Below the pieces are notes generated by a model. The model saw only the letters and a list, made by a program, of their open reading frames with translations. It did no database searches and was not told where the DNA came from. A DNA stretch of 64,000 nucleotides, taken from NCBI GenBank assembly GCA_963662465.1, contig OY759599.1, forward strand, positions 4,032,001 to 4,096,000. The letters are read 5' to 3'. Shown here piece by piece: positions 42,139-61,316 of the stretch. Origin of the DNA: Desulfatiglandales bacterium (GTDB lineage Bacteria > Desulfobacterota > DSM-4660 > Desulfatiglandales > Desulfatiglandaceae). The translations under genes were made by a program, and so were the position numbers. Within the stretch, counting starts at the first letter, position 1; each line of letters begins with the position of its first letter.

Positions 42139-42250
42139 ATTTACGCCTTGTCTTTATAACGCATGGCATTAAGAGAGGTCGGCCTAATGGTTTCCCTCAG
42201 CTCTTGAAGCATGCGGGTTTTCCGGCCGCTGCAAGCGGTAAGGAGTCATA

Positions 42251-45079: not shown

Positions 45080-45503
45080 AATCGGCAGCAGTCTTGGCGG
45101 CAACCGGGGGCTGGACGGCAGTGAAGACGCCGAACTCAACATGGCGCCCCTCATCGATATGATTTTTATCCTTTTGATTTTTTTCCTGGTCACCGCCACC
45201 TTTGTGAAGGAATCCGGGGTGGAGATCCAAAGGCCCGAAGCCGCATCGGCCCAGGACAAACCGGAGGCCGGACTTTTCATCGGCATCACCGAACAGGGGG
45301 AAATCTTCATTGACAAAACGCGGGTGGATTTAAGGAGCGTTCGCGGCATGGTGGAACATTTTTTGTTGGAAACCCCTTCGGGAGGCGTGATCCTTGAAGC
45401 CGACCGTTCCAGTCTCACGGGACGCCTCGTGGCGGTCCTGGATCAATGCCGAATGGCGGGGGCCGAAAATATCGCCGTATCCACCCTCAGGAGCGAACCG
45501 TGA
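45072..45503 (+). CDS. exbD: ExbD (copy 1)
   Basis: 'LNMAPLIDMIFILLIFFLVT'. Confidence 0.92.
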   Translation: MFRIGSSLGGNRGLDGSEDAELNMAPLIDMIFILLIFFLVTATFVKESGVEIQRPEAASAQDKPEAGLFIGITEQGEIFIDKTRVDLRSVRGMVEHFLLETPSGGVILEADRSSLTGRLVAVLDQCRMAGAENIAVSTLRSEP

Positions 45504-46330
45504 GAACAGGGCCGGCAATGGTTTTTTCCAGCCGGAAAAAGCACGGTTATGGCCTTTTGGCCTTCCTTCTGTCGCTTCTCATCAATGTCGTTATTTTCGC
45601 CATTGCCCCCATGCTCCTGGAACAGACCGGCGTGACGGACTTTTTGCCCCATGCCCTTCTGAATTTGAAAATGCCCCTGCGGTCGGAACAACCGGGATCT
45701 GAGTCAGAGCAAGACATTGAGATGAGGGATGAAAATCCCCAACCGGCACCCATGGAACCGGAATTGGAAATCGATTCACCGGACGTACCGGAGATGTTGC
45801 CCCCCGAACTTGAAATCCCCCCACTGACATCTCCCCAGGATTCTTTTGATGAGCCTGCCCCTGAAATATCCCGGTTGGAAATTCCCCTCAAGACCGTGTC
45901 CATGAAATCCGTACCCGTGGCCTTGTCCGCGCCCGCTGCCGCCCCGGCATCCTCACCCCCCCCGGCATCCGCGCCACAACCGGCTGCGCGGTCAAACCCG
46001 CAACCCGTCAAGGAACATAAAAAAAACGGCGGTTATTCCCTGGGCCAGGTGGATGCGGCGCCGAGGGCCATGTATCAGGCGCTCCCTCGCTATCCGCGCC
46101 GCGCCAGACAACGAAACATCGAGGGATGGGTGAAAGTCCGTTTTCTGGTGGATAAAGAGGGGCGGGTTCGGAACCTTCGAATACTGGAAGAATCCCCGCC
46201 GGACGTTTTTCATGAAACCGTCATGGAAACAGCGCCCCGGTGGCGCTTTCGCCCGGCCACAAAGGAAGGACGTCCCGTGAACGTCTGGGTGGAACAAACC
46301 ATTAATTTCAGGATGGACGACGCATGGTAA
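45500..46330 (+). CDS. tonB: TonB (copy 1)
   Basis: TM anchor, Pro-rich linker, 'PRYPRRAR..IEGWVKVRFLVD', 'WRFRPA'. Confidence 0.9.
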   Translation: MRTGPAMVFSSRKKHGYGLLAFLLSLLINVVIFAIAPMLLEQTGVTDFLPHALLNLKMPLRSEQPGSESEQDIEMRDENPQPAPMEPELEIDSPDVPEMLPPELEIPPLTSPQDSFDEPAPEISRLEIPLKTVSMKSVPVALSAPAAAPASSPPPASAPQPAARSNPQPVKEHKKNGGYSLGQVDAAPRAMYQALPRYPRRARQRNIEGWVKVRFLVDKEGRVRNLRILEESPPDVFHETVMETAPRWRFRPATKEGRPVNVWVEQTINFRMDDAW

Positions 46331-47937
46331 ACCGGAAACGCACCTTTCTGATTGTCTTTATGCTGGTGTTTCCATGGGGCGGCAGCCTTTTCGGCGGACA
46401 ATGCCCCCAGGAGATGCCCCCCATGAACCCGGACCTTCACAAGTGCATGGTCCAGGCTGAAAAACTGATGGACCGGGGCCGGAACACGGAAGCCCTGACC
46501 CTGTTGGATTGTTATGCTCGGGAAAACCCTTCTGAAAAACATCCTCATCCGGTTTTTGTCAGGGGGCTTTTGAATTACCGGCTCAAACGGCTGAAAAAAG
46601 CAGAGGCCCTTTTCAAAACCGCCGTAGACCGTAACCCTTGCTTCGTCGAAGCCTGGCAAAACCTGGCGGTGGTGTATCATGACCAAAAACGACCGGCCCG
46701 GGCCGCAAAATCAATGGAACGGGTGCTGGCCCTGTCAAAGGATGAACAGCCGAGTTTGAAATACCAGGCCGCCCTGTGCTGGCTGGCGGCGGACAAACCC
46801 GGAAAAGCCCTTCCCCTGCTTCAGGCCTTATCCCGAAAGAAACCGCCTCGTCCTGAATGGTTGACCCGCCTGGCGGAAGCCCAAAAAGCCCTTGGGCAGC
46901 CGAAAAACGCTGCCATGACCCTTGAAAAAGCCTACCGCAACGACCATGATCCTGAACGCCTTTACCAGGCGGCCCTGCTTGATTTGAAGGCGAAAGCGCC
47001 GGATAAAGCCCTGCCTTCTTTGAAGAAACTGGCGGCAAGCCCCCACCCTGACGCTAAATGGATCATTCTTCTAGCGCTGACCTTAGACCAGCTGGACCAC
47101 TGTTCCGAGGCCATGGAGATCATGGAAAGAACAGAGGTTAACGCCCCGTCCCTGCCGGCTGAAATGCGCTTTCAGGTGGGGATCTTCTGGTTGAAGCATG
47201 AGCGTCCCAAACAGGCCCTGCCCTGGCTTGAAGCCGTTTTTAAGGATCCCAATCCCCCTGAAGGCGCCCGCCGGGCTTATATCCGGGCACTGGTCTTGGC
47301 CGGAAAACCCCATCAGGCCGACCCCTTGCTTAGCGCCCTGTTAAAAAAAGATCCGGAGGACCATGGCATCTGGCGTCTTGCCGCATGGATTTATATGGAA
47401 CAGAAGGATTATCCCCGTGCGGCCGCCGCCCTCCACGTGGCCTATCGTCTTAATCCTCCGAACCCCGGCGAGTGGAAACGCCTGGGAGACCTGTATCGGC
47501 TTTCCGGCGTTCCCATGAAGGCCGTCGACGCTTACGAAAAAGCCTTTGGTCCATCGCCGGGAGCAAGGGACCTGGATTTGCTGGCTGAAACCTATATCGC
47601 AGCGAACCGGATGGAAAAGGCCCTTGCCGCGGCAGAGCGTGCCGTACGTTTGAAACCCACGGCGAAACGCTGGGCCAGACTGGGAGACCTCTGCCTGAAA
47701 TGCAGGGAGTGCCGCAAGGCAAAATCCGCCTTTCAACAGGCAGCGAGAATTGACGACAGGGGTGGGCTAATGAGCTTAAAGGAAGGATACGCCGCCTGGC
47801 AGATGCAGGAAATGTCATGTGCGAAAAATGCCTTTCAGAAGGCGCTTCAGCACGCGGAACCGAAAAGCGACACGGCTCTGAAAGCGTCCCATGCACTGGC
47901 GGCTATCCGGAAAATCACGGATGCGGCAAAAAATTGA
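46324..47937 (+). CDS. Exported TPR protein (copy 1)
   Basis: Signal peptide, repeated helical TPR units. Confidence 0.85.
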   Translation: MVNRKRTFLIVFMLVFPWGGSLFGGQCPQEMPPMNPDLHKCMVQAEKLMDRGRNTEALTLLDCYARENPSEKHPHPVFVRGLLNYRLKRLKKAEALFKTAVDRNPCFVEAWQNLAVVYHDQKRPARAAKSMERVLALSKDEQPSLKYQAALCWLAADKPGKALPLLQALSRKKPPRPEWLTRLAEAQKALGQPKNAAMTLEKAYRNDHDPERLYQAALLDLKAKAPDKALPSLKKLAASPHPDAKWIILLALTLDQLDHCSEAMEIMERTEVNAPSLPAEMRFQVGIFWLKHERPKQALPWLEAVFKDPNPPEGARRAYIRALVLAGKPHQADPLLSALLKKDPEDHGIWRLAAWIYMEQKDYPRAAAALHVAYRLNPPNPGEWKRLGDLYRLSGVPMKAVDAYEKAFGPSPGARDLDLLAETYIAANRMEKALAAAERAVRLKPTAKRWARLGDLCLKCRECRKAKSAFQQAARIDDRGGLMSLKEGYAAWQMQEMSCAKNAFQKALQHAEPKSDTALKASHALAAIRKITDAAKN

Positions 47938-47952
47938 AATCGGAGGTGTTTC

Positions 47953-48066
47953 GTTCAGTGGCCAAAGCCATCAGCTTATAGTATCGGCAGTATCCTTGCC
48001 GGTATCCCGGTGTATTATGCCTGGTCCTTCTACGTTCGCCACTTCGCAAGGCCTGCTCGATTATAA
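47953..48066 (+). pseudogene. C-terminal remnant of an APC-family permease
   Basis: 'QWPKPSAYSIGSILAGIPVYYAW...' last-TM motif, at the position the permease occupies in copy 2. Confidence 0.65.
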
Positions 48067-48297
48067 TTCATCGCCGGCAACCGGAGTACGTGCAGGTACA
48101 TTGGACAGAATTTGATGAATTTTTTCAAAGTCAGTTCTGGCAGCGCGTGCGTTAATGTATTCTTCTGTCAGGAGTGCTGAAATTTTTTCAGATACTGCTG
48201 AGGAAATGAACTGATTGATCGACACACCTTCCTGCTTCGCAATCTCGCGAATGTGTCTATGGATTGACTCCGGCAATCTCAAACTTAAAGCGCCCAT
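48061..48297 (-). CDS. RHH/HicB-like antitoxin
   Basis: 'LSLRLPESIH...AKQEGVSINQFI'. Confidence 0.85.
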   Translation of the reverse strand: MGALSLRLPESIHRHIREIAKQEGVSINQFISSAVSEKISALLTEEYINARAARTDFEKIHQILSNVPARTPVAGDEL

Positions 48298-48713
48298 TTG
48301 ATTTCCTCCAATAGTGTTTTGGGAGAGAGGATTTCCACCCCAAAATCTTTAACTCCTTTGAAATCTTTCCTGTTAAAAGTTGTGATGCTTTTTACACCAG
48401 ACGCCACCGCCAACTCGAGAACGTGATCATCTTTAGGATCAGGGAGAAACGGTCGCCACAAATAGTGGATTTTGTGCAGCGAACACAAAGCGCAAAAAGC
48501 GTCCAGCAGAGTCTCAATTTCTACATCGGTTAAACCCAATTTTTTGCTGTTTCGTTTCAGAACGTCCTCATATTCAAAAAGCAGGGCCACAGACATTACA
48601 GGCTTGACGCGTTTTTTCATGATGGCCTTGATAACCTGGAACGATGCACCAGTACTGGAATAAAGTCCTGCGTAAAGTATGTTCGTATTGATTACGGTGC
48701 GAATACCAACCAC
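48285..48713 (-). CDS. PIN-family toxin
   Basis: 'VINTNIL', 'EYEDV', 'DPKDDHVLELA', 'TFNRKDF'; first conserved Asp appears as Asn. Confidence 0.85.
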   Translation of the reverse strand: MVGIRTVINTNILYAGLYSSTGASFQVIKAIMKKRVKPVMSVALLFEYEDVLKRNSKKLGLTDVEIETLLDAFCALCSLHKIHYLWRPFLPDPKDDHVLELAVASGVKSITTFNRKDFKGVKDFGVEILSPKTLLEEIKWAL

Positions 48714-48856
48714 CTCCCAAAAAATATCATAATACTATATGTGGTATCATTGTAGTCGTCAAACAAATAATATGCATGGGGAAACTGTCCGAGAATAGAA
48801 AACTTAGCAATTTTAACATAGGGGTTAGCGTTGTGTAGTTGCTGATTTTAACCACT

Positions 48857-49570
48857 TCAATAAACATGGGGGTGTTTTAACGCCTGATGTTTATGGAAAT
48901 GGCTGTGCAGCGTTCCGGCCGCGCCGTTATAGGCAATTTTTCCGGCCGTCATAGTGTAGATTTTCCGGGTGGTTTCCTCCAGAAAATCGTATTCGTGAGA
49001 GACGATGACATAGCTGATGTCGAGACGGTTCAGGAGAGAGGCGATGGTGCTCCGGGCCTCTTCATCCAGGCCGGTGGTGGGTTCGTCCAGCAGGAGCGCT
49101 TTCGGCTGCATGACCAATACCGTTGCCAGGGAGACGAGCTTTTTTTCGCCTCCCGAAAGCCTGTGGGTAACGCGGTTTTCAAATCCTTTCAGTTTCAGCA
49201 TTTCAAGGGTTTCCATGGCCATGGAACGGGCCTCTTTGGGTGTTTTCCCCAGGTTGAGTGGGCCGAAAGCCACATCTTCCAGTACGGTGGGACAAAAAAG
49301 CTGATCATCCGCGTTCTGAAAAAGAAAACCGATGACGCGTCTGACCGTCAGAAAATCTTTTTTGCTTTCGACTGTTTTTCCCAAAACCCGGATACTTCCG
49401 GATGAGGGTTTGAGAAGCCCCATGATGATATGCAGCAGCGTGGTTTTGCCGCTGCCGTTATATCCGATCAATCCTACCTTTTCTTCTTCGGGAAGGGAGA
49501 ACTTCAGATTGTTCAGTACCGGCTTGTCTTTTTCATGGGAAAAGCAGAGGTTATCCAGTTCGAGAATCAT
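48857..49570 (-). CDS. cbiO: ECF Co/Ni transporter ATPase
   Basis: 'GYNGSGKTT', 'FQNADDQLF', 'LSGGEKK'; His-rich tail. Confidence 0.9.
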   Translation of the reverse strand: MILELDNLCFSHEKDKPVLNNLKFSLPEEEKVGLIGYNGSGKTTLLHIIMGLLKPSSGSIRVLGKTVESKKDFLTVRRVIGFLFQNADDQLFCPTVLEDVAFGPLNLGKTPKEARSMAMETLEMLKLKGFENRVTHRLSGGEKKLVSLATVLVMQPKALLLDEPTTGLDEEARSTIASLLNRLDISYVIVSHEYDFLEETTRKIYTMTAGKIAYNGAAGTLHSHFHKHQALKHPHVY

Positions 49571-50325
49571 TATGCGTGTACCCATTCAAGGATTAGTATG
49601 CCCAATAGGGTTGTGATGGTGCAGAACAGCCAGATCAAGTCCCGCCGCGATCGGGAAAATTCGGAAAGGGAATGGAATTTCCCGTTGAACCCGCGGCAAA
49701 GCATGGCCATGTAGACCCGCTCGGCCCGCTCCGAGGCCCGCACGAAAAGCATCCCCACGAGATAGGCGAATGTCCTGTAGGTGTGCAGCCGAGTGGACGG
49801 TTGAAACCCGCGGACCGCTGCTGATCGGACCAGCCGGTGATATTCCTCTTCCATAACGAAGATATACCGGTAATTCAGCAGCAGGAGATGCACCATTTTT
49901 TGTGGAACACCCAGCCTGCCGAGAGCTGCCCCCAGGCTTGCAACGGAACTGGTGGCGATGAGCGCAATAAAAGCCAGCAGTATGGCATTGCTTTTGAGCG
50001 TGATTCGGGCCGCAATCAAAACCCCCTCATGGGTTGCCGTGAAGGGTCCCAGGGAAAAAATGGGTTGGCCGGGGTAGGTAAAGGGGATCACAAACCAGAA
50101 GAAGAGAACAAAACCGTTTACTATCGCAACCCGTTTGCCCACTTCCCACAGGGGCAAGCGGGAGGTGCCCAGGAGAACAAAGGAAAAGGCGAGACTCAGA
50201 AAAAGAGGGGGAAATCGGTTTGAAAGGGCCACGACAAAGGCATAGAGCGTCGCCATGACAATCTTGAACCGGGGGTCGAGGTCGTGGATGGGGCTGGCGC
50301 CGTGCGCAAAGGGTTCCTGTAACAT
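49570..50325 (-). CDS. cbiQ: ECF Co/Ni transporter T component
   Basis: 'LDPRFK', 'YRYIFV', 'VRGF', 'AMLCRGF'. Confidence 0.9.
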   Translation of the reverse strand: MLQEPFAHGASPIHDLDPRFKIVMATLYAFVVALSNRFPPLFLSLAFSFVLLGTSRLPLWEVGKRVAIVNGFVLFFWFVIPFTYPGQPIFSLGPFTATHEGVLIAARITLKSNAILLAFIALIATSSVASLGAALGRLGVPQKMVHLLLLNYRYIFVMEEEYHRLVRSAAVRGFQPSTRLHTYRTFAYLVGMLFVRASERAERVYMAMLCRGFNGKFHSLSEFSRSRRDLIWLFCTITTLLGILILEWVHA

Positions 50326-50332
50326 AAATCCA

Positions 50333-50726
50333 TCAGCCTTTCTTGCGTGCGTCTATTTCACGGATTTTGCGGCGAAAGTGGATATAGGAGGCCAGGCCCA
50401 ATAAACCCAAAATATAGCCGATGCCGCCCAGAATATCGTGGAGGGTGGGCGCTTTGTCCTGGGATTCCGCAAACATTTTGAGTACCGGTCCGAGCCTTCG
50501 CTCCAGGGATTGGTCCAGAACGTCGCGCATTTGGTTCAGGTTGACGGAGGATGCTTCCATTGAATTTGCTTTCCGTGTGAACGGTATCGCCTTCCACCCA
50601 TGCGAATATGTTTACCCTGTGGGCCATTGCGGAACCGGACCACAGCAGGCAAAACATGAAAAGACATGCCGATCCAAAAGTAATTTGCCGGCATTGAATA
50701 GCATCAAAACTCAAAAATGTTTTCAT
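50333..50726 (-). pseudogene. CbiL/NikL-like protein with internal deletion and frameshift near 50560
   Basis: N-half 'AHRVNIFAWVEGDTVHTESKF' and C-half '...DILGGIGYILGLLG' are in different frames with the middle missing. Confidence 0.75.
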
Positions 50727-50736
50727 GATCTCCTTT

Positions 50737-51342
50737 TCACGAAATATTCCCGGACAGCATTTCAGGTTGAACTTTTTTCAAAAATGCCACACAGAAAGCG
50801 GTGATGATCCCTTCGATGATCATCACGGGAAGGTGCGCCGTCACCACCAGATAGGAGACTTTTAAAAAATTTTCCTCGGTGAAGGTCAGGGCCAAACCCA
50901 CCATGACGGCGCCCAAAAAGACGGAAAGCGATCCGCACAAAAAAGCCGCCGGCAAGGCAATGCGAGGCCCCTTTCCCACGAGCTTACCGAATAGATAATA
51001 ACATAAAACGGCGGGCAGGGCCATGATCAGGGTGTTGACCCCGAGGGTCGTGATACCGCCGAACTGAAAAAAAACGGCCTGGAGCGCCAACGCCACAAGG
51101 ATGACGGGAAAAGCCCCCCAGCCGAGAATAAGGCCCACAATCCCGTTCAGAATCAGATGAACACTGGAGGGACCGATGGGAACGTGAATCAGGGAGGCTA
51201 CAAAAAATGATGCGGAAAGAATCGCGGCACGCGGGATGCGGTCGTAATTCAGTTTCTTAAGCCCTATGGCAGTGCCGGCAGCGGCCAGCACAATGCCCGA
51301 AATAATCACCGGCCCGGACAGGACGCCTTCGGAAATATGCAT
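50737..51342 (-). CDS. cbiM: ECF Co/Ni transporter S component
   Basis: Diagnostic N-terminus 'MHISEGVL'; 'SVHLILNG', 'GGITTLGVN'. Confidence 0.92.
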   Translation of the reverse strand: MHISEGVLSGPVIISGIVLAAAGTAIGLKKLNYDRIPRAAILSASFFVASLIHVPIGPSSVHLILNGIVGLILGWGAFPVILVALALQAVFFQFGGITTLGVNTLIMALPAVLCYYLFGKLVGKGPRIALPAAFLCGSLSVFLGAVMVGLALTFTEENFLKVSYLVVTAHLPVMIIEGIITAFCVAFLKKVQPEMLSGNIS

Positions 51343-51402
51343 GATATGCCTTTCATAATTAGAGAGAAGCAAAGCTGTTTGATCAAAACCAAGACCGTTA
51401 TG

Positions 51403-51618
51403 CTATTTTTCTTTCCAATCAAGGAATTTTACCCAGAGGACCGCTCCCAGTTCCACGATTCCCTGAAAAACGTTTCCGGCATAGAGACCGAACGGCTTTG
51501 ACAGGGGAACGATCTCGGTTTTGAGTCCGATTTCCCGGTCCCAGCCTTCATCATCCCCAAAAGCCGCGACAACGGTTTTCGTATAGTGAACGATGAAACA
51601 GTCTTCCGCCGGTTCCCA
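51403..51618 (-). pseudogene. Remnant of a DUF4198 (NikM-domain) periplasmic Co/Ni protein
   Basis: Startless frame '[27 protein letters not shown]...[31 protein letters not shown]'. Confidence 0.75.
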
Positions 51619-51720
51619 TTATGATCATTTGCGGCCGCTCTCGAAGCGACCGTTTTGTTTTGAACCGATCCGATCGGTTCGTCTCTCAGTTCGCATGCGC
51701 ATGCCTTGCTGAAAACAGCC

Positions 51721-51776
51721 AAAAAAAAGCCAAAAAGACAGTTTCGGGTACACCCCCGATCCAGCCTTCTTGGCTT
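51721..51776 (-). terminator. Leader terminator/attenuator-like hairpin of the cbi transcript
   Basis: AGCCAAGAAGGC...GTCTTTTTGGCT followed by T-run on minus strand. Confidence 0.65.
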
Positions 51777-51807
51777 TTTTGGTTTTTGCTTCAGATTTAT
51801 TTCAGAT

Positions 51808-51869
51808 GTGCAATTTCGTATTGCACGTGCTATCGAGTGCTGAATAAACTCTTATTGCCGGGTTGTCAA
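51808..51869 (-). promoter_or_regulatory. Leftward promoter with 19-bp palindrome
   Basis: TTGACA-17-TATTCA, then GTGCAATACGAAATTGCAC. Confidence 0.6.
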
Positions 51870-52033
51870 GATATTTTCCTAGGGAAGGAATGCACCACCA
51901 CCCAAGATGATTTTCGTTAAACCTCTGGCAGAGAATTTAGTACACTTTTGTGTTCAGATCAACTGAAAGGGAAGGTGGAATGATGCGCAATCAAAAGGAT
52001 GCGTGCTTCAGCACCGGCGCTTTGATCTTTTGC

Positions 52034-52096
52034 TTGACAGAAAAACCGGTACTTGTTATAGGACCCGAATTCCTACGGCGCAAAACGAAATTGCGC
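52034..52096 (+). promoter_or_regulatory. Rightward promoter with 19-bp palindrome
   Basis: TTGACA-17-TATAGG with TG extension, then GCGCAAAACGAAATTGCGC. Confidence 0.65.
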
Positions 52097-52144
52097 GCAT
52101 GATTCAAAGCGTAAAGACTGACACAATTTAGGTTTTAACAAAAC

Positions 52145-52200
52145 AGGCCAAGAAGGCAATGTCGGATTGAAGTCCGGTGGTGTCTTCCCGGCCTTTTTTT
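52145..52200 (+). terminator. Leader terminator/attenuator-like hairpin of the receptor transcript
   Basis: AGGCCAAGAAGGC...GTCTTCCCGGCC followed by T8. Confidence 0.65.
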
Positions 52201-52471
52201 ATGTGCTATGGAAAAGGGAGGGGGTGATTGAAAAGAGTGAGACCATAATCGAAATCAGACATTAAGGATGGGAAGACAGCCAAGGTTCCCGCAAGGATAT
52301 ATGGCTGCCTTCCCGGTGGAAGCCCCTCGGATGGAGAGACGCCCGAATATTCTTTTACCATAAGCGTATTTTCCCCGTCAATTTCCTTCTGCTTCCAATC
52401 CGAGGATAAACAACCTTGAGCCGCTCTAATGCGTCCAAAACGCTACGGCGGAAACAACGAAGGAAACAATA

Positions 52472-54583
52472 ATGAAAAAGTATTCAAAATGGGGTCATGG
52501 GACCTTTATGTTCCTGGGTCTCTGGGTCGTGATGGTTTTTCTGCTGGGGGCGTCGGTTTGCCCGAGTGATGCGGAAGAGCCGGAAGACAAGAAGGCAATC
52601 GCCCAAACGGGAGAAAAAAAGGCAGGCGCCGGAAAGGCCGTGCAACTGGAAGATGTGACGGTGATGGCGGCGCAACCGGGCGTTGAAATTACGCCGGATA
52701 AAACCGTCATTCGAATGGATGAGTTCGTTAAACCGGGAGATGTGCGAACCCTTACGGACGTGTTGAAAACCATGGGGGGCATCGACGTTATGCGCGTTAA
52801 TCCCATGATGGCCAGTCCGGGAGATGAAGTGTCCATTCGCGGCATGAACGAAGGCCGTCTGGTGGTGGAAATCGACGGCAGGAGAATCAACCACAGCGGC
52901 TACTATGGAAGGTATATCGTGGACTGGTCAACGCTGAACATGGACGATGTCGAAAAAGTTGAAATCATCCGGGGTGGTCATTCGGTGCTGCATCCCTTTG
53001 CCATCGGCGGCGTGATCAACATCATCACCAAAAAGGGCAAAAAAACCGATGATCCCAAGCCCAATGTGCGCGCCAAGGCGGGTGTGGGGGCCTTCACCAC
53101 CACCACGGAATCCCTTTCCATTGACGGCGGGGCATTCAATGTGGTGGGCTATGATTTTTCAGTGAACAATGGTTCCACCAACGGTTACTTGCGGAACAAC
53201 TACCAGGACAGCACCACGCTCAATGGACATTTAAGTTTCTTTATGCCCATGGACGCAGTGCTGGAACTGGGGGTCAAGCATGCGGATGTAAATTACGGAT
53301 TTCCAGTGGTAAACGACCCCTCCCGGGCCGATTACGATGCCGGCTCTCCCAACTTTTATGCCAATGCCGACCAGCTCAGGCATCTGAACTGGCCCCAGTA
53401 TGCGGAAAATGATCCCAGTTGGAAAAAACATACCACCTACCTCGACGGCATATTCCGCATGCCCGCGGGGCCCGGGACCATCAATATTCACGGATACCTC
53501 ACCAATGGCAGGCGCTGGACCAGCCTCTACAATAAAATGGGTGTTCTTGAACCCGATGTGTTCATGGATGACCGCACCGAGGGGGTTATCGCGGAGTACC
53601 GGGATATCGATTTATTCGGATTCAACAAGGTGACCGTGGGGTATGAATATCAACTCCTGGGCGCCCCCAGTGAAATTTCGGACCTGTTCCGGGTTAGCTC
53701 CGGGTACATCCAGGACGTGATCACCATAGGGGATCAATGGCGCCTCACACCGGGGGTTCGTTATTACCATGTGGATATGAACACTTACTACTCCCAGTTC
53801 GGCAAAGGATGGCCCGTAGCCGGCAATACGGAGACGGATGAGGGGTTTTATCCCAGCCTGAGGGCCGACTTTCAAGCCACCGATGAAACCGCCCTTTATG
53901 CGGCGGTGAGCCGGTCCTATCGGCTGCCGTGTCCTTGAGACTACTACTGGTGGGCGCGGTGCGCGTCCGAGGAGAATCCCACGTTAAAACCGGAATCGGC
54001 CTGGGAATACGAGTTGGGCCTGATTCAGGATATGGATCCCATTAATTTGAGAGCCGCCATATACTACTATGACATCAAAAACTTCATCAACGACAACGGC
54101 ATTACGTCTCCCGGAACGGGCATCGGGAGCAACTGCCTTTACAACATTCCCCACTTCAAACTCTGGGGCGGTGAAATCGAGACGAGCCTTCGCTTGGGCC
54201 GGTTCCAGGGGACCCTTTCCTACAACTATCAAAACTACAATGCGGACAATACCGGATTTGAGGCGGACTGGTCCTATTATCTTCCCGCGCTTCTGCCCCA
54301 GAACAAAGTCAAGTTTCTGGGCAATTACGAGGTCTGGAAAGGCGGGATGGTTCAGTTGAGCAGCATCTTCGTGGATGAACGAAAGACCCAGCAGCCGGGG
54401 GTGGACGATCTGGACAGCTACATCACCTTTGATGCGGGGTTTCAGCAGTCATTTCATTTCGCCGGCGTTAACTGGCGGGCCGAGACCTACTGTAACAACT
54501 TTACGGGGGCCAATTACCAGGAACAGGCGGGATACCGCATGCCCAAATATGTTTGGGGGTTTCTGTTGAGCGCCCGATTTTAA
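52472..54583 (+). CDS. TonB-dependent receptor 2, 703 aa, with in-frame TGA at codon 489 (candidate selenocysteine, C-P-U)
   Basis: ORFs 52472-53938 and 54014-54583 share a frame: 'SYRLPCP-U-DYYWWARCASEENPTLKPESAWEYELG'; TonB box 'EDVTVMA', plug 'VEIIRGGHSVL', terminal F. Confidence 0.88.
53952..53968 (+). promoter_or_regulatory. Candidate bacterial SECIS hairpin
   Basis: GGGCGCG-GTG-CGCGTCC; G-led loop about 20 nt after TGA. Confidence 0.65.
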
Positions 54584-54609: not shown

Positions 54610-55545
54610 ATGAAATATTACACCAATAAACGCATTTCAACCTGGTTTACAATTGCCTGTCTGGTCCTGGCGGCGGGATGGGTATTGCCATCCCCGGTCG
54701 CCGCCTGGGGAGGCCGGGGCCATCTGTACGTTATCGGCACCGGACCCGCGGGTCCTCAAACCGCCACGCTCCAGGCCCTTGATACCCTCAGAAGCATGGA
54801 TATCATTGTCGCCCCTCAAAAACATGTCAATCTGTTTGCGGAATATGTGGGCCAAAAACCCGTTCTGTTCGATCCGTGGACGGACATCTGGGACTACAAG
54901 GGAAAAAGCATGTGGAAGCTGGATGAAACGGAACTGGCGGCATTTAAGACGGAGCGCTTTAAAATCCGTGATGAGCGGGTGGCCAAAATTAAGGATGCAC
55001 TGGCCCGGGGGAAAGATGTGGGTCTCATGGACCACGGCAATCCCTGTTTATACGGTCCCAGCCACTGGTATGCGGAGCAGTTTGATCTTGATGATGTGAT
55101 TATCATTCCGGGGATGGGGTGCGACGCCGCGGCCATGGCGGCTCTTAAAAAAAGCACCATCCCCGCCCATGACAGCCATTTCGTCATTCAGACCGCTCCC
55201 TTTTCGCTGATGCGCTGGGGAGGGAAAGAACAGGCAATCCTCAAGGATATCGGCAAATACCCTTCGACCCTGATTTTCTATATGGCCCTTTGGGAGCCCG
55301 AAGCGTTGTTTACGGCGCTCAACTCAAGCTTTCCCCCGGATATGCCCTGCGCCGTGGTTTTCTGGGCCGGTTATCCGGAAAAGGAGCGGGTTCTTCGGGG
55401 AACCCTGGCGGATATGCCGGAAAAGCTTTCAAAAGACAAGGAAAAATTCATGGGATTGTTATTCGTGGGTCGGTTTCTTGAAGGCAACCCCTATGATGCC
55501 GCCATGAAACGGTCTCAGAAGGAATTGGGGAAAAACACGCCATAA
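54610..55545 (+). CDS. Tetrapyrrole (corrin/porphyrin) methylase-family protein with N-terminal signal peptide
   Basis: 'GHLYVIGTGPAG', 'DHGNPCLYG', 'IIPGMG'; preceded by a hydrophobic signal ending 'VAA'. Confidence 0.82.
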   Translation: MKYYTNKRISTWFTIACLVLAAGWVLPSPVAAWGGRGHLYVIGTGPAGPQTATLQALDTLRSMDIIVAPQKHVNLFAEYVGQKPVLFDPWTDIWDYKGKSMWKLDETELAAFKTERFKIRDERVAKIKDALARGKDVGLMDHGNPCLYGPSHWYAEQFDLDDVIIIPGMGCDAAAMAALKKSTIPAHDSHFVIQTAPFSLMRWGGKEQAILKDIGKYPSTLIFYMALWEPEALFTALNSSFPPDMPCAVVFWAGYPEKERVLRGTLADMPEKLSKDKEKFMGLLFVGRFLEGNPYDAAMKRSQKELGKNTP

Positions 55546-55684
55546 GGAGGGCTTTACGAATATTTTCAGAAGGAATTGCGGAAAAAGGGGAATGGTTTGT
55601 TTCCGTGACCCATGAAATTCCCTATGACGATAAAAGCGAATGCGACACCCAAAAATATAATGCCACGTTCACCTTTGACGTGAA

Positions 55685-55711
55685 GTAGGGGCGAAAAATC
55701 TTTCGCCCCCG
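55685..55711. repeat. GTAG-type REP-like palindrome
   Basis: GTAGGGGCGAAAAATCTTTCGCCCC. Confidence 0.5.
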
Positions 55712-55727
55712 CCATGAGGATTTAAAA

Positions 55728-57218
55728 ATGCTGTTTCGAAAGTTGATTTTGACCTGCATTCTAGTTGCGACGCTCTTTTTGATTCCCTGTTCTTCCCATG
55801 CCCACACGTACAGGGTTCCGGTTCTGGTGGACACGGACATGGCCCTGGACGACATGCGGGCCATTATTATGCTGTTAAATTCCCACATGGTGGATATCCC
55901 CCTTGTTGTGGTATCCGACGGCATTTCATCCCCTGAAAAGGGGGTTGAAAATCTCAAGGCCCTGCTGTCGCGCTTTGATCGAAACGGCGTCCACATGGCC
56001 AGGGGCAAGCCATCGGACATGCCGCCGCCTCCCGTCCGGCCGCTGTCTGAAAACATACAGTGGCCCCATAAGGGGGCATCATTTTCCCGGTCCATTGCGG
56101 CAAAAGATGCGCCTGGCGCCATTATCGAAACATTGAATGGGTTGCCCGGCCGGGTTGTTTATCTCTGCCTGGGACCCATGACCAACCTGGCCGAGGCCAT
56201 TCGACAGGCCCCCGGAATTCAATCCAAAATTTCCCGCGTCATCTATTTCGGGGATCATCCGAAAAGCGCCGACCCCGGTTGGAACACGACCCGGGATGTT
56301 GACGCCGCTGCCGGGGTTTTTGCATCGGGCATGGATATCTATTGCATTCACCCGGCCAAAAAAGACCTTCGTCCCTTTGATCGCAACATGCTGGAAAAAA
56401 TGGATGCCATTGGGTCCCCGGCGGCCAGGTTGGTATCCACCATTCACAAAGGGATTACGGTTCAAAAAGCCATTGATCAAGGGCATCTCATGATATGGGA
56501 CGAAAATGCCGTGATTTATCTGGAAAGCCCTGAGCTATTCAAGATGGAGCCCGTCTCAGGAGATCCATACCTCATGCGGCTGAACGGCTTCGATGCCGAA
56601 GGCGTACTCCGGGCCTATGTCGAATGCCTGGGGCGCCCGGCGGACGCCCATCTGGATGCCCGTCATGCGGTTGTGCTGAAGATGTTCCCCCATGATCCGC
56701 TTATGTTCAAACCGGATGTTGCGCCCCATGTGGACCGGATTATCAAACGGTACGGCATTGAAGAGTGGAAGGCCGCGGTTCTCACCCACGAGTTGCACCG
56801 GCACCTGGGCATCTATTCCCTGATCGGCGCCAAAATGGGCGTCAGGGCCAGGGAAATTCTGGATGCCCCTTTCGACGCCCTGAAGGTGGTTTCCCATGCG
56901 GGAAACAAACCGCCCCTCAGTTGCATGAACGACGGGCTTCAGGTGTCCACCGGCGCCAGCCTGGGGCGGGGAACCATTCGGATTGATGGCGAAAATCCAA
57001 TGCCTTCGGCAACCTTTATCTACCGAAACGAGAGGCTTGAATTGACCCTGAAACCCCGGTGGCGGGAAAAAATAAAGGCCGATATCAAGGCGGCCATTCA
57101 ACAATTCGGTGGCTTGAACAAGTCCTATTTTGCCCATATTCGAAAACTATCCATTGCATACTGGCATGATTTTAATCGTGGGGAGATTTTTGATGAAAAG
57201 CTGGGCCTGGCCAAATAG
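55728..57218 (+). CDS. Exported nucleoside hydrolase-like / FmdE-domain fusion
   Basis: Signal ending 'SHA'; 'VDTDMALDD', 'LGPMTNLA', 'WN...D', 'IWD'; C-term 'HELHRHLG...SCMNDGLQVSTGASLGRG'. Confidence 0.8.
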   Translation: MLFRKLILTCILVATLFLIPCSSHAHTYRVPVLVDTDMALDDMRAIIMLLNSHMVDIPLVVVSDGISSPEKGVENLKALLSRFDRNGVHMARGKPSDMPPPPVRPLSENIQWPHKGASFSRSIAAKDAPGAIIETLNGLPGRVVYLCLGPMTNLAEAIRQAPGIQSKISRVIYFGDHPKSADPGWNTTRDVDAAAGVFASGMDIYCIHPAKKDLRPFDRNMLEKMDAIGSPAARLVSTIHKGITVQKAIDQGHLMIWDENAVIYLESPELFKMEPVSGDPYLMRLNGFDAEGVLRAYVECLGRPADAHLDARHAVVLKMFPHDPLMFKPDVAPHVDRIIKRYGIEEWKAAVLTHELHRHLGIYSLIGAKMGVRAREILDAPFDALKVVSHAGNKPPLSCMNDGLQVSTGASLGRGTIRIDGENPMPSATFIYRNERLELTLKPRWREKIKADIKAAIQQFGGLNKSYFAHIRKLSIAYWHDFNRGEIFDEKLGLAK

Positions 57219-57672
57219 TTTCGTCCTTTTTATTGCGCTTCTGCTGATTCCCTGCGGACTTTTTGCGCACGGGGTCAAGGGAGAGATTGCCGTAGGGACC
57301 GGCGCTATGATTGTCACGGCCCGGTACAGCAACGATGAAGCTATGAGCTATTCCGAAACGACCATCCGCCCACCTGCCGGGGAATTGGATTTTCAGACGG
57401 GCAGAACCGACCGAAACGGCCGGTTCTGCTTTTTCCCAGATGCGGACGGCGATTGGGAGGTGACCGTTAATGATGGAATGGGACACCGGCTGAGGATATT
57501 GGTTCCCGTCAGCAAGGATAGCCCCCTTGCATCAGACCCCGTGGCTGCCCCTTTAACCGGAAATTCATCCGCTTTGGTTGCAAGAGCCCTTTCAGGTCTG
57601 TGCATTATCTTTGGCATTTCCGGGTGCTTAATATGGTGGAGAACCCGGAAGATCCATCAAAAAACGCCATAG
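57193..57672 (+). CDS. CbiL/NikL-like periplasmic protein with C-terminal TM anchor
   Basis: Signal then 'AHGV', 'FQTGRTDRNGRFCFFPD..GDWEV..NDGMGH'. Confidence 0.72.
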   Translation: MKSWAWPNSFVLFIALLLIPCGLFAHGVKGEIAVGTGAMIVTARYSNDEAMSYSETTIRPPAGELDFQTGRTDRNGRFCFFPDADGDWEVTVNDGMGHRLRILVPVSKDSPLASDPVAAPLTGNSSALVARALSGLCIIFGISGCLIWWRTRKIHQKTP

Positions 57673-57704: not shown

Positions 57705-58532
57705 TTGATGTCTCGTTTTTGTAGTTTTTTCGGGTTCTTATTCTTTTTTTGGGTCATACCTGCGTTTGTATTCTTCCCTTGCCAGGCCGGCTGTGAATCG
57801 GAGGTTCAACCCACGGCCCTGCAAGTCAAGCAGAATGCCGAAGCATCGGTAGAAATCCGTCGTCTGAGCCAGAAACGCGTTGATGCCTGGGCGGATAAAG
57901 AAGAAAAAATGCTCTTGGAAATTTCACGCCTTCAGAAAGATCTGGATGCGCTCAAGTGGAGAAGGAAAAAAACCGATACCTATCTCTCGGATCTGGAAAG
58001 TAAAATGGCGGCCTTAAATGAAGGAAGCCGTGCGGCAAAAGAGATTCAGGATGAATTGGAGCCTTTCCTGGAAAAGACCCTTCAGGACCTGGAAGCGTTT
58101 TCCGAAAATGAATTGCCGTCCCTGAGGGAACTTCAAAGCCCCGGTCTTCAATCGGCCAAGGAAATGCAGAATGATGCGGATGCCGATATGGTCCGGAAAA
58201 CCCGCGGCCTGCTGGAGCTTCTCATGCGGGCCGTGGAATACGGATATTTCGTGGAACCGGACCAGACCGATATCGTCATCGATGAAAAGATCATTCGCGT
58301 CAAACGCATCAGCGTGGGACGATTGGGGCTCTTTGCCCTGAGCGCCGACGGAGATCAAGCCTGGAAATGGCAGCCTGGGAAAGAGCAATATGAACCGATT
58401 CCCCATTTTGCCGGCGCCATCCGGGAAGCCATCCAGATCTGTGAACGAAGGCGTCTGGTGGAATTGGTGGAATTGCCCATGGGACCCCCTGTCAGCCCCC
58501 CTGTCAGCTCTGACAAGGAGGTGGAAAAGTGA
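57705..58532 (+). CDS. DUF3450-family protein (copy 2)
   Basis: Paralog of 42251-43078. Confidence 0.82.
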   Translation: MMSRFCSFFGFLFFFWVIPAFVFFPCQAGCESEVQPTALQVKQNAEASVEIRRLSQKRVDAWADKEEKMLLEISRLQKDLDALKWRRKKTDTYLSDLESKMAALNEGSRAAKEIQDELEPFLEKTLQDLEAFSENELPSLRELQSPGLQSAKEMQNDADADMVRKTRGLLELLMRAVEYGYFVEPDQTDIVIDEKIIRVKRISVGRLGLFALSADGDQAWKWQPGKEQYEPIPHFAGAIREAIQICERRRLVELVELPMGPPVSPPVSSDKEVEK

Positions 58533-59932
58533 GGGTTTTGCTCTGTCTGTTTTTTTTATGGTCCTTCCCGCCATTGCTTTTTGCCCAATCGTCCTCATTC
58601 AGCCGGGTGGCCCAAGAGGTAGAGACGGATTTGAAAAAGGCGCAGGCGGAAGAAACCCTCACCCTGGCCGATGTGGCCGAGAAACGCAAAGAACTCATGA
58701 CCCGGCGGGATCGCCTGATATCTGATATCAAAAGGGAAAGCGAAGCCCTTGCAGCTGACGAACTGCGGCTTTCGGAAATGCGGAAAAAGCGGCTGGAACT
58801 GATCCGTATGGTTCAGACCCACACGGGCCGCATGAAAGAGCTGGATGCGGCCATACGGGATTTTGCTCGTAATTTCTATAGTTTAGCTGAGCGTTCCGCC
58901 TATAGTGCTGAAACGCCCGACCGGTTGACGATTCTCAAGCATTTCCTGGATAAAAACAAAATTCTCGGGATTCAGGATATTCAAACCCTGGTGGCATTGG
59001 CTTTTAAGGATATGACGGCATCAGGGCAGATCATCCGGCGTGAAGGGGGAATGGTGGATCGTCGGGGAGAAACGGTCCAGGGGGCGATTATCCGCATGGG
59101 CAATCTTACCGCCATCTACCGGAGCGGGGGAGATGTGGGGTACCTCAGCCCGAGTCCCGCTTCAGGGAGGCTTTTGGTTTCCGCTCCCCCCGGATGGGGT
59201 GTTTGCCGGAATCTGAAACAGTATTTTGAAGGGGAAACCGATGACGTCTATATGGATATCTCGGGGGGCGCAGCCATCAAACAGATGGCGCGTAAAGCCA
59301 CCTTATGGGAGCAGATTCAGAGCGGCGGCGTGTTGGTATGGCCTATCCTGCTGGTGGGGTTGGTGGCCGTCATTCTGGTGCTTGAACGGCTTATCTTCCT
59401 GGGTCGGGTGCGGCACAACACCGACAAACTCATGACCCATGTGACGGAGCTGGTGGAAGCGGGCGATTACCGGGGCGCCATGAAGGAAACCGAGTCCCTG
59501 TCCGGCATGCCCACCAGCAATGTTTTAAAGGCCGGGCTTACCCAGCAGGGTCAGCCCCGGGACATCATTGAAAGCAGTCTGGCCGAGGCCATCCTCAAGG
59601 AAACCCCGCGTCTGGAACGATTTCTGCCCGCCCTCAAGGTGCTGGCGGCCATTGCGCCCCTTCTGGGGTTGCTCGGGACCGTGACCGGCATGATCAACAC
59701 CTTTCAGGTGATTACCGTTCATGGGACCGGCGACCCGCGCCTTATGGCCGGCGGGATCAGCGAAGCCCTCATCACCACCCAGCTGGGTCTGGCCGTGGCC
59801 ATTCCCATACTGGTGATCGCGGCCCTTTTGGGACGAAAAGTGAACCGCATTGCCTCGGATATGGAGGAAAAAGCCATGGCCCTGATCGCGGCCCTTTTAA
59901 GAGATCAGAGGGTTTCCCATGAACTGTCTTGA
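58529..59932 (+). CDS. Large MotA/TolQ/ExbB protein (copy 2)
   Basis: Near-identical to 43075-44478. Confidence 0.88.
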   Translation: MRVLLCLFFLWSFPPLLFAQSSSFSRVAQEVETDLKKAQAEETLTLADVAEKRKELMTRRDRLISDIKRESEALAADELRLSEMRKKRLELIRMVQTHTGRMKELDAAIRDFARNFYSLAERSAYSAETPDRLTILKHFLDKNKILGIQDIQTLVALAFKDMTASGQIIRREGGMVDRRGETVQGAIIRMGNLTAIYRSGGDVGYLSPSPASGRLLVSAPPGWGVCRNLKQYFEGETDDVYMDISGGAAIKQMARKATLWEQIQSGGVLVWPILLVGLVAVILVLERLIFLGRVRHNTDKLMTHVTELVEAGDYRGAMKETESLSGMPTSNVLKAGLTQQGQPRDIIESSLAEAILKETPRLERFLPALKVLAAIAPLLGLLGTVTGMINTFQVITVHGTGDPRLMAGGISEALITTQLGLAVAIPILVIAALLGRKVNRIASDMEEKAMALIAALLRDQRVSHELS

Positions 59933-60083
59933 AACCATGTGGCGCTTTGTTCAAACGGGAGGCCCCATCATGATCCCATTGGTGCTGATTTCCATCTGGA
60001 TGTGGTATCTGAATTCAGGGGGATCTCATGATATTTTACCGGGCCGTGGACCAATGGCTGGAAAGGAATACGCCCATGTTTAG
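59919..60083 (+). pseudogene. exbB: exbB copy 2 with 449-bp internal deletion plus 1-bp deletion
   Basis: Junction at 60012/60013 joins equivalents of 44558 and 45008. Confidence 0.9.
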
Positions 60084-60507
60084 AATCGGCAGCAGTCTTG
60101 GCGGCAACCGGGGGCTGGACGGCAGTGAAGACGCCGAACTCAACATGGCGCCCCTCATCGATATGATTTTTATCCTTTTGATTTTTTTCCTGGTCACCGC
60201 CACCTTTGTGAAGGAATCCGGGGTGGAGATCCAAAGGCCCGAAGCCGCATCGGCCCAGGACAAACCGGAGGCCGGACTTTTCATCGGCATCACCGAACAG
60301 GGGGAAATCTTCATTGACAAAACGCGGGTGGATTTAAGGAGCGTTCGCGGCATGGTGGAACATTTTTTGTTGGAAACCCCTTCGGGAGGCGTGATCCTTG
60401 AAGCCGACCGTTCCAGTCTCACGGGACGCCTCGTGGCGGTCCTGGATCAATGCCGAATGGCGGGGGCCGAAAATATCGCCGTATCCACCCTCAGGAGCGA
60501 ACCGTGA
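60076..60507 (+). CDS. exbD: ExbD (copy 2)
   Basis: Same protein sequence as 45072-45503. Confidence 0.9.
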   Translation: MFRIGSSLGGNRGLDGSEDAELNMAPLIDMIFILLIFFLVTATFVKESGVEIQRPEAASAQDKPEAGLFIGITEQGEIFIDKTRVDLRSVRGMVEHFLLETPSGGVILEADRSSLTGRLVAVLDQCRMAGAENIAVSTLRSEP

Positions 60508-61316
60508 GAACAAGGCCGGCAATGGTTTTTTCCAGCCGGAAAAAGCACGGTTATGGCCTTTTGGCCTTCCTTCTGTCGCTTCTCATCAATGTTGCCCTTT
60601 TCGCCATTGCCCCCATGCTCCTGGAACAGACCGGCGTGACGGACTTTTTGCCCCATGCCCTTCTGAATTTGAAAATGCCCTTACGGTCGGAACAACCGGG
60701 ATCTGAGTCAGAGCAAGACATTGAGATGAGCGATGAAAATCCCCAACCGGAGCCCATGGAACCGGAATTGGAAATCGATTCACCGGACGTACCGGAGATG
60801 TTGCCCCCCGAACTTGAAATCCCCCCACTGACATCTCCCCAGGATTCTTTCGATGAGCCTACCCCTGAAATATCCCGGTTGGAAATTCCCCTCAAGACCG
60901 TGTCCATGAAATCCGTACCCGTGGCCTTGCCCGCGCCCTCTGCCGCCCCAGCATCCGCGCCACAACCGGCTGCGCGGTCAAACCCGCAACCCGTCAAGGA
61001 ACACAAAAAAAACGGCGGTTATTCCCTGGGCCAGGTGGATGCGGCGCCGAGGGCCATGAATCAGATGCTCCCTCGCTATCCGCGCCGCGCCAGACAACGA
61101 AACATCGAGGGATGGGTGAAAGTCCGTTTTCTGGTGGATAAAGAGGGGCGGGTTCGGAACTTGCGAATACTGAAAGAATCCCCGCCGGACGTTTTTCATG
61201 AAACCGTCATGGAAACGGCGCCCCGGTGGCGCTTTCGCCCGGCCAAAAAGGGCGGGAGACCCGTGAACGTCTGGGTGGAACAAACCATTAATTTCAGGAT
61301 GGACGACGCATGGTAA
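60504..61316 (+). CDS. tonB: TonB (copy 2)
   Basis: Paralog of copy 1, linker 6 aa shorter. Confidence 0.9.
   Translation: MRTRPAMVFSSRKKHGYGLLAFLLSLLINVALFAIAPMLLEQTGVTDFLPHALLNLKMPLRSEQPGSESEQDIEMSDENPQPEPMEPELEIDSPDVPEMLPPELEIPPLTSPQDSFDEPTPEISRLEIPLKTVSMKSVPVALPAPSAAPASAPQPAARSNPQPVKEHKKNGGYSLGQVDAAPRAMNQMLPRYPRRARQRNIEGWVKVRFLVDKEGRVRNLRILKESPPDVFHETVMETAPRWRFRPAKKGGRPVNVWVEQTINFRMDDAW

Follow-up and report, generated by a model that had tools for sequence, protein, structure and literature searches.

A reading frame for a TonB-dependent receptor that is interrupted by one TGA raises the question of how this codon is read, as a stop or as selenocysteine (Sec, U), and what a Sec residue would do in an outer-membrane transporter. 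The locus lies in a window of 64,000 nucleotides, by which the whole stretch of DNA analysed is meant (Desulfatiglandales bacterium, assembly GCA_963662465.1, contig OY759599.1, positions 4,032,001 to 4,096,000 of the forward strand), and the window belongs to a single-contig genome of 8.16 Mb. On translation, 52472–54583 (+) was found to be one frame of 703 codons with a single internal TGA and a terminal TAA. The first-pass annotation of this DNA had described two open reading frames (ORFs) as one 703-codon frame split only by a TGA at 53936–53938, and this is what the translation gave. Its further remarks on the frame also held: the TGA stands two codons 3′ of a Cys (Cys487 against codon 489) with a second Cys at 497, and the count of 25 sense codons past the TGA (490–514) before the TTG at 54014, where the second listed ORF starts, is exact. 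Codons 485–493 read LPCP-TGA-DYYWW, within the local peptide ...RSYRLPC(487)-P-U(489)-DYYWWARC(497)ASEENPTLKPE.... Pfam places the Plug domain (PF07715) at residues 77–181 and the TonB_dep_Rec_b-barrel domain (PF00593) at residues 230–676, crossing the TGA. In NCBIfam (release 20.0, June 2026) the protein scored 1128.6 bits against NF049947, 'TonB-dependent receptor, PCPU motif-type' (cut-off 800), with residues 45–703 matching profile positions 22–685 of 685.

Judged by sequence comparison, the TGA is almost certainly a Sec codon, and the outer-membrane TonB-dependent receptor gene is taken as intact because this internal TGA is conserved. The explanation as a whole, a Sec-containing receptor of the PCPU type together with the mechanism proposed for it below, the cargo apart, is considered highly probable. 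For a genetically encoded Sec, the outer face of the outer membrane is an unusual place. In annotation, the receptor and its relatives are to be called as one selenoprotein of 703 residues, not as two fragments. The features of the receptor gene are the following.

52472–54583, + strand: PCPU-type TonB-dependent receptor gene, 703 residues, plug and 22-strand barrel, one Sec codon (reading frame, Pfam, NCBIfam, AlphaFold2 model)
53930–53962, + strand: codons for Cys487-Pro488-Sec489 through Cys497, at the start of and within the predicted loop 7 helix 488–497 (alignment, model)
53936–53938, + strand: UGA very probably read as selenocysteine, residue 489 (column conservation, Sec machinery)
53952–53968, + strand: SECIS-like hairpin GGGCGCG-GUG-CGCGUCC with a 7-bp stem (53952–53958 with 53962–53968)
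54134–54136, + strand: Cys555 codon (GSNCLYNI); in the model the residue closes extracellular loop 8 (coordinate computed from the start codon)

Decoding of the internal TGA

Genomes were searched with stop codons read through, and the TGA column was obtained by extraction and alignment. This resulted in 19 orthologous PCPU loci, consisting of the window's own, ten from 61 related genomes, seven from a phylum sample of 401 genomes and one from a named metagenome-assembled genome of Desulfobacca. TGA occupies the same alignment column in all 19, at 50–96% identity and across several taxonomic families, which answers the tally of TGA against Cys that had been suggested for this position. Each of the ten loci from related genomes contains exactly one TGA (62–96% identity), as do the eight genomes of the phylum sample, the source genome included, that scored above the family cut-off. 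The motif LPCPUDYYWWARCA is invariant across the PCPU loci. A search of genome contigs for related loci, with plug-domain patterns, returned generic or distant receptors for 79 of 80 loci and a sole new PCPU locus (L077), which is counted among the 19.

The sequence past the TGA behaves as coding sequence. Protein identity after and before the TGA is alike (e.g. 95% versus 96% and 92% versus 91%), and in two orthologues of the same genus the ratio of synonymous to non-synonymous changes was 34:11 and 38:17 after the TGA, compared to 68:19 and 108:44 before it. By this comparison, purifying selection on the 214 codons past the TGA is similar to that on the 488 preceding codons. Residues that are invariant in the family are encoded by the stretch from the TGA to the next potential start codon. 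Among 1.84 billion representative proteins, relatives were found that end exactly at ...RLPCP, ...MRLP or ...PGC, and separate C-terminal pieces were present too. For four sequencing runs, available as contigs, no difference among those listed falls at 53936–53938, and contigs of a DNA metagenome and of an RNA library bridge the TGA; nothing firm was drawn from either, transcription not being provable from contigs.

The machinery for Sec insertion, whose presence the first-pass annotation had left to be confirmed, is encoded in full. The source genome contains SelA (525 bits), SelB (382 bits, cut-off 242), one tRNA-SeC with anticodon tca, and selD (L017, C1:5156011-5156934), which has one in-frame TGA itself and is therefore a Sec-type SelD. 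SelB scored above its cut-off in all five other PCPU-carrying genomes tested.

Downstream of the UGA a hairpin resembling a selenocysteine insertion sequence (SECIS) was located, with its stem starting 13 nt and its G-led loop of 3 nt (53959–53961) starting 20 nt past the UGA. A GC-rich hairpin with a G-led loop at about 20 nt had been seen at first pass, and its geometry agrees with published criteria for bacterial SECIS elements. The same arrangement was found in four motif types of receptor (PCPU, PUIUD, CU and FCYXU-like), each with a hairpin 13–14 nt past the last UGA and a G-rich loop of 3–4 nt, and it is kept, with compensatory changes, although the encoded peptides differ. When 23 sequences (21 distinct) from these four types were aligned without gaps, 87.8% of the cells formed standard pairs and four of the seven pairs were changed on both sides; the covariation score was reached by none of 500 shuffles. 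The covariation check that had been proposed is thereby in favour of the hairpin. The mean folding energy of a 32-nt piece was −12.5 kcal/mol for 22 distinct Sec loci and −7.6 kcal/mol for the corresponding position in nine non-Sec homologues.

Several observations weigh against this account of the decoding. Compared to shuffled sequence, the folding energy in this GC-rich stretch is unremarkable (z = 0.09 for an 81-nt piece, z = −1.64 for the 32-nt piece), and the support for the hairpin comes from comparison with relatives and not from energy. The 3′ arm slid by −2 still pairs 81.6% of the cells, because this arm is a GC repeat. Within the PCPU type, conservation of the hairpin could be an effect at the protein level, as the hairpin encodes the invariant peptide WWARCAS, and all hairpin statistics, the p-value for Sec versus non-Sec loci included, overstate independence because the sequences are related. 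Among the loci and 92 full-length representatives, no PCPU-type orthologue was found that carries Cys instead of Sec, and in the closest homologues without Sec the Sec column is Pro (in the genomic ones mostly Pro). In the 92 representatives this column is Pro in 28, Asp in 15, Asn in 12 and Cys in two (P0004 and P0015), both of them relatives of the CU type. The pairing of TGA with Cys that had been expected at this column was therefore seen only in the sister CU type.

If the TGA were a true stop, the locus would be a pseudogene or would encode two polypeptides of 488 and 189 residues. Gene callers split the gene in this way, public protein libraries carry the cut pieces, and real decay is present nearby in the form of a degraded second receptor copy and an APC permease gene broken by a TAG. 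The chance of a true stop is nevertheless regarded as negligible, given the identical TGA column in 19 of 19 loci despite identities down to 50% and several families, the family-invariant residues encoded by the 25 codons before the next start, and the undiminished purifying selection past the TGA; in addition, a barrel ending after strand 13 of the structural model could not close. The genuine nonsense codon nearby is also of a different kind: the TAG in the permease gene, an ordinary nonsense mutation 9 kb downstream, replaces a Trp codon and is missing from a 94%-identical, intact paralogue (C1:4111055 onward), in contrast to the conserved TGA of the receptor. Translation of the TGA without Sec, by near-cognate read-through as Trp or Cys or by a suppressor tRNA, would also give a full-length protein. 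This is very improbable in view of the full Sec machinery and of a hairpin of SECIS type that is spaced canonically from the UGA, of relatives of a sister type that have Cys and not Trp in place of Sec, of the TGA codons that terminate 9 of 18 neighbouring ORFs, and of the NCBI family name, which gives the site as U. Two other origins of the TGA were considered and rejected, namely a sequencing error, because the TGA is conserved across genomes, and a genome-wide reassignment of TGA, because half of those 18 ORFs terminate in TGA, which is thus an ordinary stop here.

Receptor family and sister types

The first-pass annotation was unsure whether a receptor of this kind had been catalogued. By its sequence the receptor is a member of the curated family NF049947, with the P-C-P-U motif shared, the TGA at the U position and no difference found, and its novelty is low because the gene belongs to an already curated family. 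In the literature searched, no paper using the name 'PCPU motif' was found, while the supplementary tables of deep-Sep may list members; supplements aside, the PCPU type appears to be curated yet undescribed there. A sister type is in print: the deep-Sep paper of 2025 (PMC12013277) describes, for Desulfosarcina sp. BuS5, a TonB-dependent receptor selenoprotein of the FCYXU type that has homologues with TGA and with Cys. The FCYXU type is the only one named in the table of a 2026 review (PMC13188914), whose main text does not contain the terms PCPU, PUIUD, NF049947 or NF049946, and 'TonB' does not occur in the main text of the BSepDB paper.

Against the three sister models the receptor remained below the cut-offs, with 479.5 bits versus 850 for NF049944 (PUIUD), 387.1 versus 700 for NF049946 (CU) and 226 versus 825 for NF049945 (FCYXU). 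The sister Sec types carry Sec at the same place of the barrel, between RxP and NPxL, with the hairpin at the same distance, and differ from the PCPU receptor in having 26–33% identity and another local motif. These motifs are G-C-U-D or G-C-U-S (L032, L047, L058) and Y-C-I-I-U (L052). The PUIUD locus (L029, G036:C175) has two in-frame TGA codons two residues apart in M-P-U-I-U-D, the first of which stands in place of the PCPU-type Cys. It has the same core neighbours as the PCPU loci (methylase-like protein, DUF4198, APC permease); different genes flank the CU and FCYXU-like loci that were examined. Cys497 and Cys555 are specific to the PCPU type; what the sister types share is just the pair of chalcogen residues close to each other.

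In heme receptors, a histidine on loop 7 ligates the heme, and YRLP and NPTL of the present receptor had been equated at first pass with the FRAP and NPNL motifs that bracket it. With respect to position this is correct, as RLP/NPTL occupy the FRAP/NPNL positions of the heme receptors (ShuA/ChuA, PhuR, HasR; TIGR01785), which have the same fold. The stretch between the two motifs is CPUDYYWWARCASEE, without His, so that the loop presents Cys-Pro-Sec where the heme receptors have histidine. Both heme models were missed (TIGR01785 with 118.4 versus 316.85 bits, TIGR01786 with 103.8 versus 323.75 bits), and RxP...NPxL(K)PE was found throughout the 92 full-length representatives, making it generic to TonB-dependent receptors. 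Because the motif is generic and the heme model failed, the match is no evidence for a tetrapyrrole cargo. A phmmer comparison of residues 434–703 with PDB sequences gave one weak match, PhuR, aligned from the NPNL box onward only; since only the NPNL side is covered, equivalence of Sec489 with the heme histidine does not follow from the sequence. The receptor may work like a heme receptor, yet it is no member of that family. The B12 models were missed as well (TIGR01779, BtuB, 65.1 versus 599.7 bits; NF007926, 68.1 versus 836 bits), as was the copper-receptor model TIGR01778 (37.7 versus 472.45 bits).

Predicted structure and position of the Sec residue

The structure was modelled with AlphaFold2 from an alignment of 26 sequences, with Cys standing in for Sec. 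The model (mean pLDDT 81.8, pTM 0.84) consists of a plug and 22 barrel strands. Connections from even to odd strands are 2–4 residues long, as periplasmic turns, and those from odd to even strands are long, as extracellular loops. Residues 485–507 (23 residues) join strand 13 (473–484) to strand 14 (508–521) and form loop 7, which is assigned as extracellular because it is an odd-to-even connection. The structure prediction that had been called for to place the loop therefore puts Cys-Pro-Sec in a predicted extracellular loop, where Cys487-Pro-Sec489 lies at the N-terminus of a helix (488–497) and Cys497 at its end. Cys555 closes loop 8 (542–555), which has low confidence at 545–550. All three cysteines (487, 497 and 555) are invariant in the 18 aligned PCPU sequences, in contrast to the other two of the protein, which are not conserved. 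The substitution of Cys for Sec and the small number of sequences, just 26, count against the exactness of this placement.

Searches with Foldseek returned BtuB, FecA, PqqU and others with probability 1.00. Receptors of differing cargo rank about equally (TM-score 0.64–0.71), and since they match equally well the fold gives no clue to the cargo. Comparison of the receptor-family profile with the PDB likewise resulted in generic receptor matches; the alignment with Cir has a Cys pair in the same loop, and nothing specific was found. In the copper receptor OprC of Pseudomonas aeruginosa a soft metal is bound by side chains of Cys, Met and His, situated elsewhere in the protein than the Sec site, and OprC is a precedent for thiolate-based metal capture in the superfamily. 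Its fold is similar (PDB 6fom, 6z8q and others, TM-score about 0.70) and, unlike the PCPU receptor, it is without Sec.

The first-pass annotation had proposed C-P-U and the second Cys as a surface site for a soft metal or a tetrapyrrole, and such a site at C-P-U and Cys497 is plausible in view of the predicted loop 7 position and the invariant cysteines. A more specific proposal, that Cys487, Sec489 and Cys497 of loop 7 join Cys555 of loop 8 in a metal site of three Cys and one Sec at the mouth of the barrel, is tentative and rather doubtful; chemically it is likened to the nickel site of [NiFeSe] hydrogenases. If true, such a site would let sulfate reducers draw nickel or cobalt from sulfide-rich water and would be the first selenolate-based substrate capture in outer-membrane transport.

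Gene neighbourhood, proposed mechanism and candidate cargo

The genes around the receptor were assigned as follows.

48857–51372, − strand: divergent CbiM, NikL-like, CbiQ and CbiO, a nickel/cobalt importer of the energy-coupling factor (ECF) type (Pfam, NCBIfam)
52017–52471, + strand: conserved 5′ leader of the receptor gene (same-genus comparison, consensus fold)
54610–55545, + strand: exported tetrapyrrole-methylase-like protein with an N-terminal signal-like segment (Pfam TP_methylase)
55728–57218, + strand: exported fusion of IU_nuc_hydro and FmdE-like domains with an N-terminal hydrophobic signal-like segment (Pfam)
57130–57672, + strand: NikL-like small protein (NCBIfam NF058648, 60.2 bits, below the cut-off of 100)
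57705–62923, + strand: DUF3450, ExbB, ExbD, TonB and TPR genes, the energising Ton complex (Pfam)
63004–64000, + strand: APC-family permease gene, broken by a TAG at 63466–63468

Neighbours were counted in 13 other PCPU loci with extended flanks. The most constant partner is the methylase-like gene, which comes immediately after the receptor in all 13, followed by DUF4198 (11), the APC permease (7), NikL-like (6) and the hydrolase/FmdE fusion (5), and cbiM or a cbiM-like gene lies next to the receptor in two (L060 and L077). No DUF4198 gene was found in the window, where just 183 nt separate the methylase-like and hydrolase/FmdE genes (55545–55728); in the closest relative, L062, a DUF4198 gene (L062:12470-13228) is located between these two. 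The methylase-like protein remained below every NCBIfam cut-off and, compared to CbiF, has two acidic motif residues replaced (GPGD by GPAG and GDP by GNP). With these replacements and its signal-like segment, it is judged from sequence to be probably not catalytic and to act as a periplasmic binder instead. Three methylase-like paralogues occur in tandem at locus L061. The hydrolase/FmdE fusion has the motif DTDMALDD, and a nucleoside hydrolase of the periplasm is a puzzling member of an operon for metal-type uptake.

The 5′ leader is 89% and 83% identical in two genomes of the same genus and is partly kept in two more. It contains a long terminator-like hairpin at about 52145–52194, a U-run and another hairpin that is conserved (GGGAAGACAGCC...GGCTGCCTTCCC); the stretch GCCCCTCGG...GGAGAGAC is conserved as well. 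A promoter-like site, TTGACA-17 nt-TATAGG, was noted by eye at 52034–52062, and a sigma-70 scan of the leader gave no promoter. An Rfam scan of 40000–64000 at gathering thresholds had no match; a permissive scan of 51300–52550 gave only two chance-level matches to eukaryotic RNAs and no known riboswitch.

Insertion of Sec by SelB at a SECIS element is an established mechanism in bacteria. By analogy, SelB and Sec-tRNA(Sec) would decode UGA 489 as Sec, guided by the 7-bp hairpin 13 nt downstream. The protein would then be exported and, following the model, fold into a 22-strand barrel with plug that displays Cys487-Pro-Sec489 on loop 7, where the selenolate and the thiolates would act as soft ligands catching a thiophilic cargo at the cell surface. 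Passage through the barrel would be powered by the adjacent ExbB-ExbD-TonB set. The methylase-like protein, joined in relatives by DUF4198 and the NikL-like protein, would take over the cargo in the periplasm, and either the APC permease or the neighbouring CbiMQO importer would move it across the inner membrane. On the tentative proposal of a metal site of three Cys and one Sec, the receptor would be the entry of an undescribed pathway with an exported methylase-fold binder, DUF4198 and an APC permease, which would also take in the nucleoside hydrolase/FmdE fusion and the NikL-like protein.

The conserved neighbours suggest that nickel or cobalt is taken up, or else a metal chelate. The most likely candidate for the cargo would be nickel or cobalt, either as the free metal or in a small chelate, an assignment in which our confidence falls somewhat short of even. 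The locus shares CbiM, CbiQ, CbiO, the NikL-like protein and, in relatives, DUF4198 with importers of the ECF-type Nik/Cbi group and with Zcp; NikK is presumably equivalent to DUF4198. The Nik/Cbi components and Zcp differ from the receptor in being inner-membrane or periplasmic proteins. Zcp, the sole characterised DUF4198 protein, captures zinc in the periplasm; in vitro, binding of Co, Ni and Cu was observed as well (PMC12663993). Were the Sec/Cys cluster to bind nickel, cobalt or a metal chelate, it would reveal how thiophilic trace metals are acquired by anaerobes living in sulfidic sediments.

A number of findings speak against nickel or cobalt. The leader contains no nickel/cobalt or cobalamin riboswitch and no Rfam family, the characterised DUF4198 protein serves zinc (PMC12663993), cbiM is next to the receptor in just three of 14 loci, and the NikL-like matches are below the NCBIfam cut-off. 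The module moreover looks partly decayed here, with DUF4198 not found and the APC permease broken by a TAG, and the methylase-like and nucleoside-hydrolase-like partners are unexplained by a bare-metal cargo.

Two other functions have been considered for the same Sec receptor. Its cargo could be a metallo-tetrapyrrole, e.g. a corrinoid, with Sec489 or Cys487 as axial ligand of the metal, a role comparable to that of the loop 7 histidine towards heme iron in heme receptors. An exported methylase-fold protein that has lost two acidic motif residues accompanies the receptor in 13 of 13 loci and an exported nucleoside-hydrolase-like protein in six of 14, BtuB is among the top structural matches, the Sec receptor types apart a heme-receptor subfamily gives the best partial match in NCBIfam, and for the corrinoid protein HgcA a Sec form (CU) is entered in the table of the 2026 review (PMC13188914). 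Set against this are the heme and B12 models missed by a wide difference (118.4 versus 316.85 and 65.1 versus 599.7 bits), a leader without cobalamin riboswitch, structural matches that are equally good to siderophore, pyrroloquinoline quinone (PQQ) and copper receptors, FRAP/NPNL-like motifs that occur superfamily-wide, and a PhuR alignment that reaches only the NPNL side, with equivalence of the histidine loop not shown. A metallo-tetrapyrrole or nucleoside-type chelate is accordingly considered unlikely, and it is kept at that level, and no lower, because a bare ion would be a poor match for the methylase fold, the hydrolase and the APC permease. In the second case Cys-x-Sec would not be a metal ligand and would form a redox couple (selenylsulfide) that reduces, or exchanges with, polysulfide, selenotrisulfide or a disulfide-linked chelate at the cell surface. 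A close chalcogen pair is the layout of redox-active selenoproteins, and such a pair is all that the four motif types share (C-x-U, U-x-U, CU and C-x-x-U); in the AlphaFold2 model it is placed at the N-terminus of a helix. The conserved module encodes no reductant or electron-transfer partner, we know of no electron supply at the outer face of the outer membrane, and nickel/cobalt-related neighbours recur, which makes a redox couple distinctly unlikely. Nickel or cobalt uptake by the Sec receptor is retained as the preferred candidate.

The region around the receptor has undergone a tandem duplication of about 15.5 kb with 94–98% identity between the copies, 42227–53855 versus 57681–72653 (C1:4074227-4104653). 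Duplicated are the genes for DUF3450, ExbB, ExbD, TonB and TPR together with the CbiO-CbiQ-NikL-like-CbiM operon, and in addition the leader and the first part of the receptor gene. One set of DUF3450-ExbB-ExbD-TonB is co-oriented with the receptor at 57705–61316 and the second is located at 42251–46330. The second receptor copy lies outside the window (C1:4103503-4104779, window-equivalent 71497–72779) and is 93–98% identical and degraded: it has a TAG and internal deletions, leaving residues 2–308, 384–462 and 559–600, is without the Sec region and is fused to the tail of a TPR gene. The uptake module of the source genome looks partly decayed, and the Sec receptor itself is without defect.

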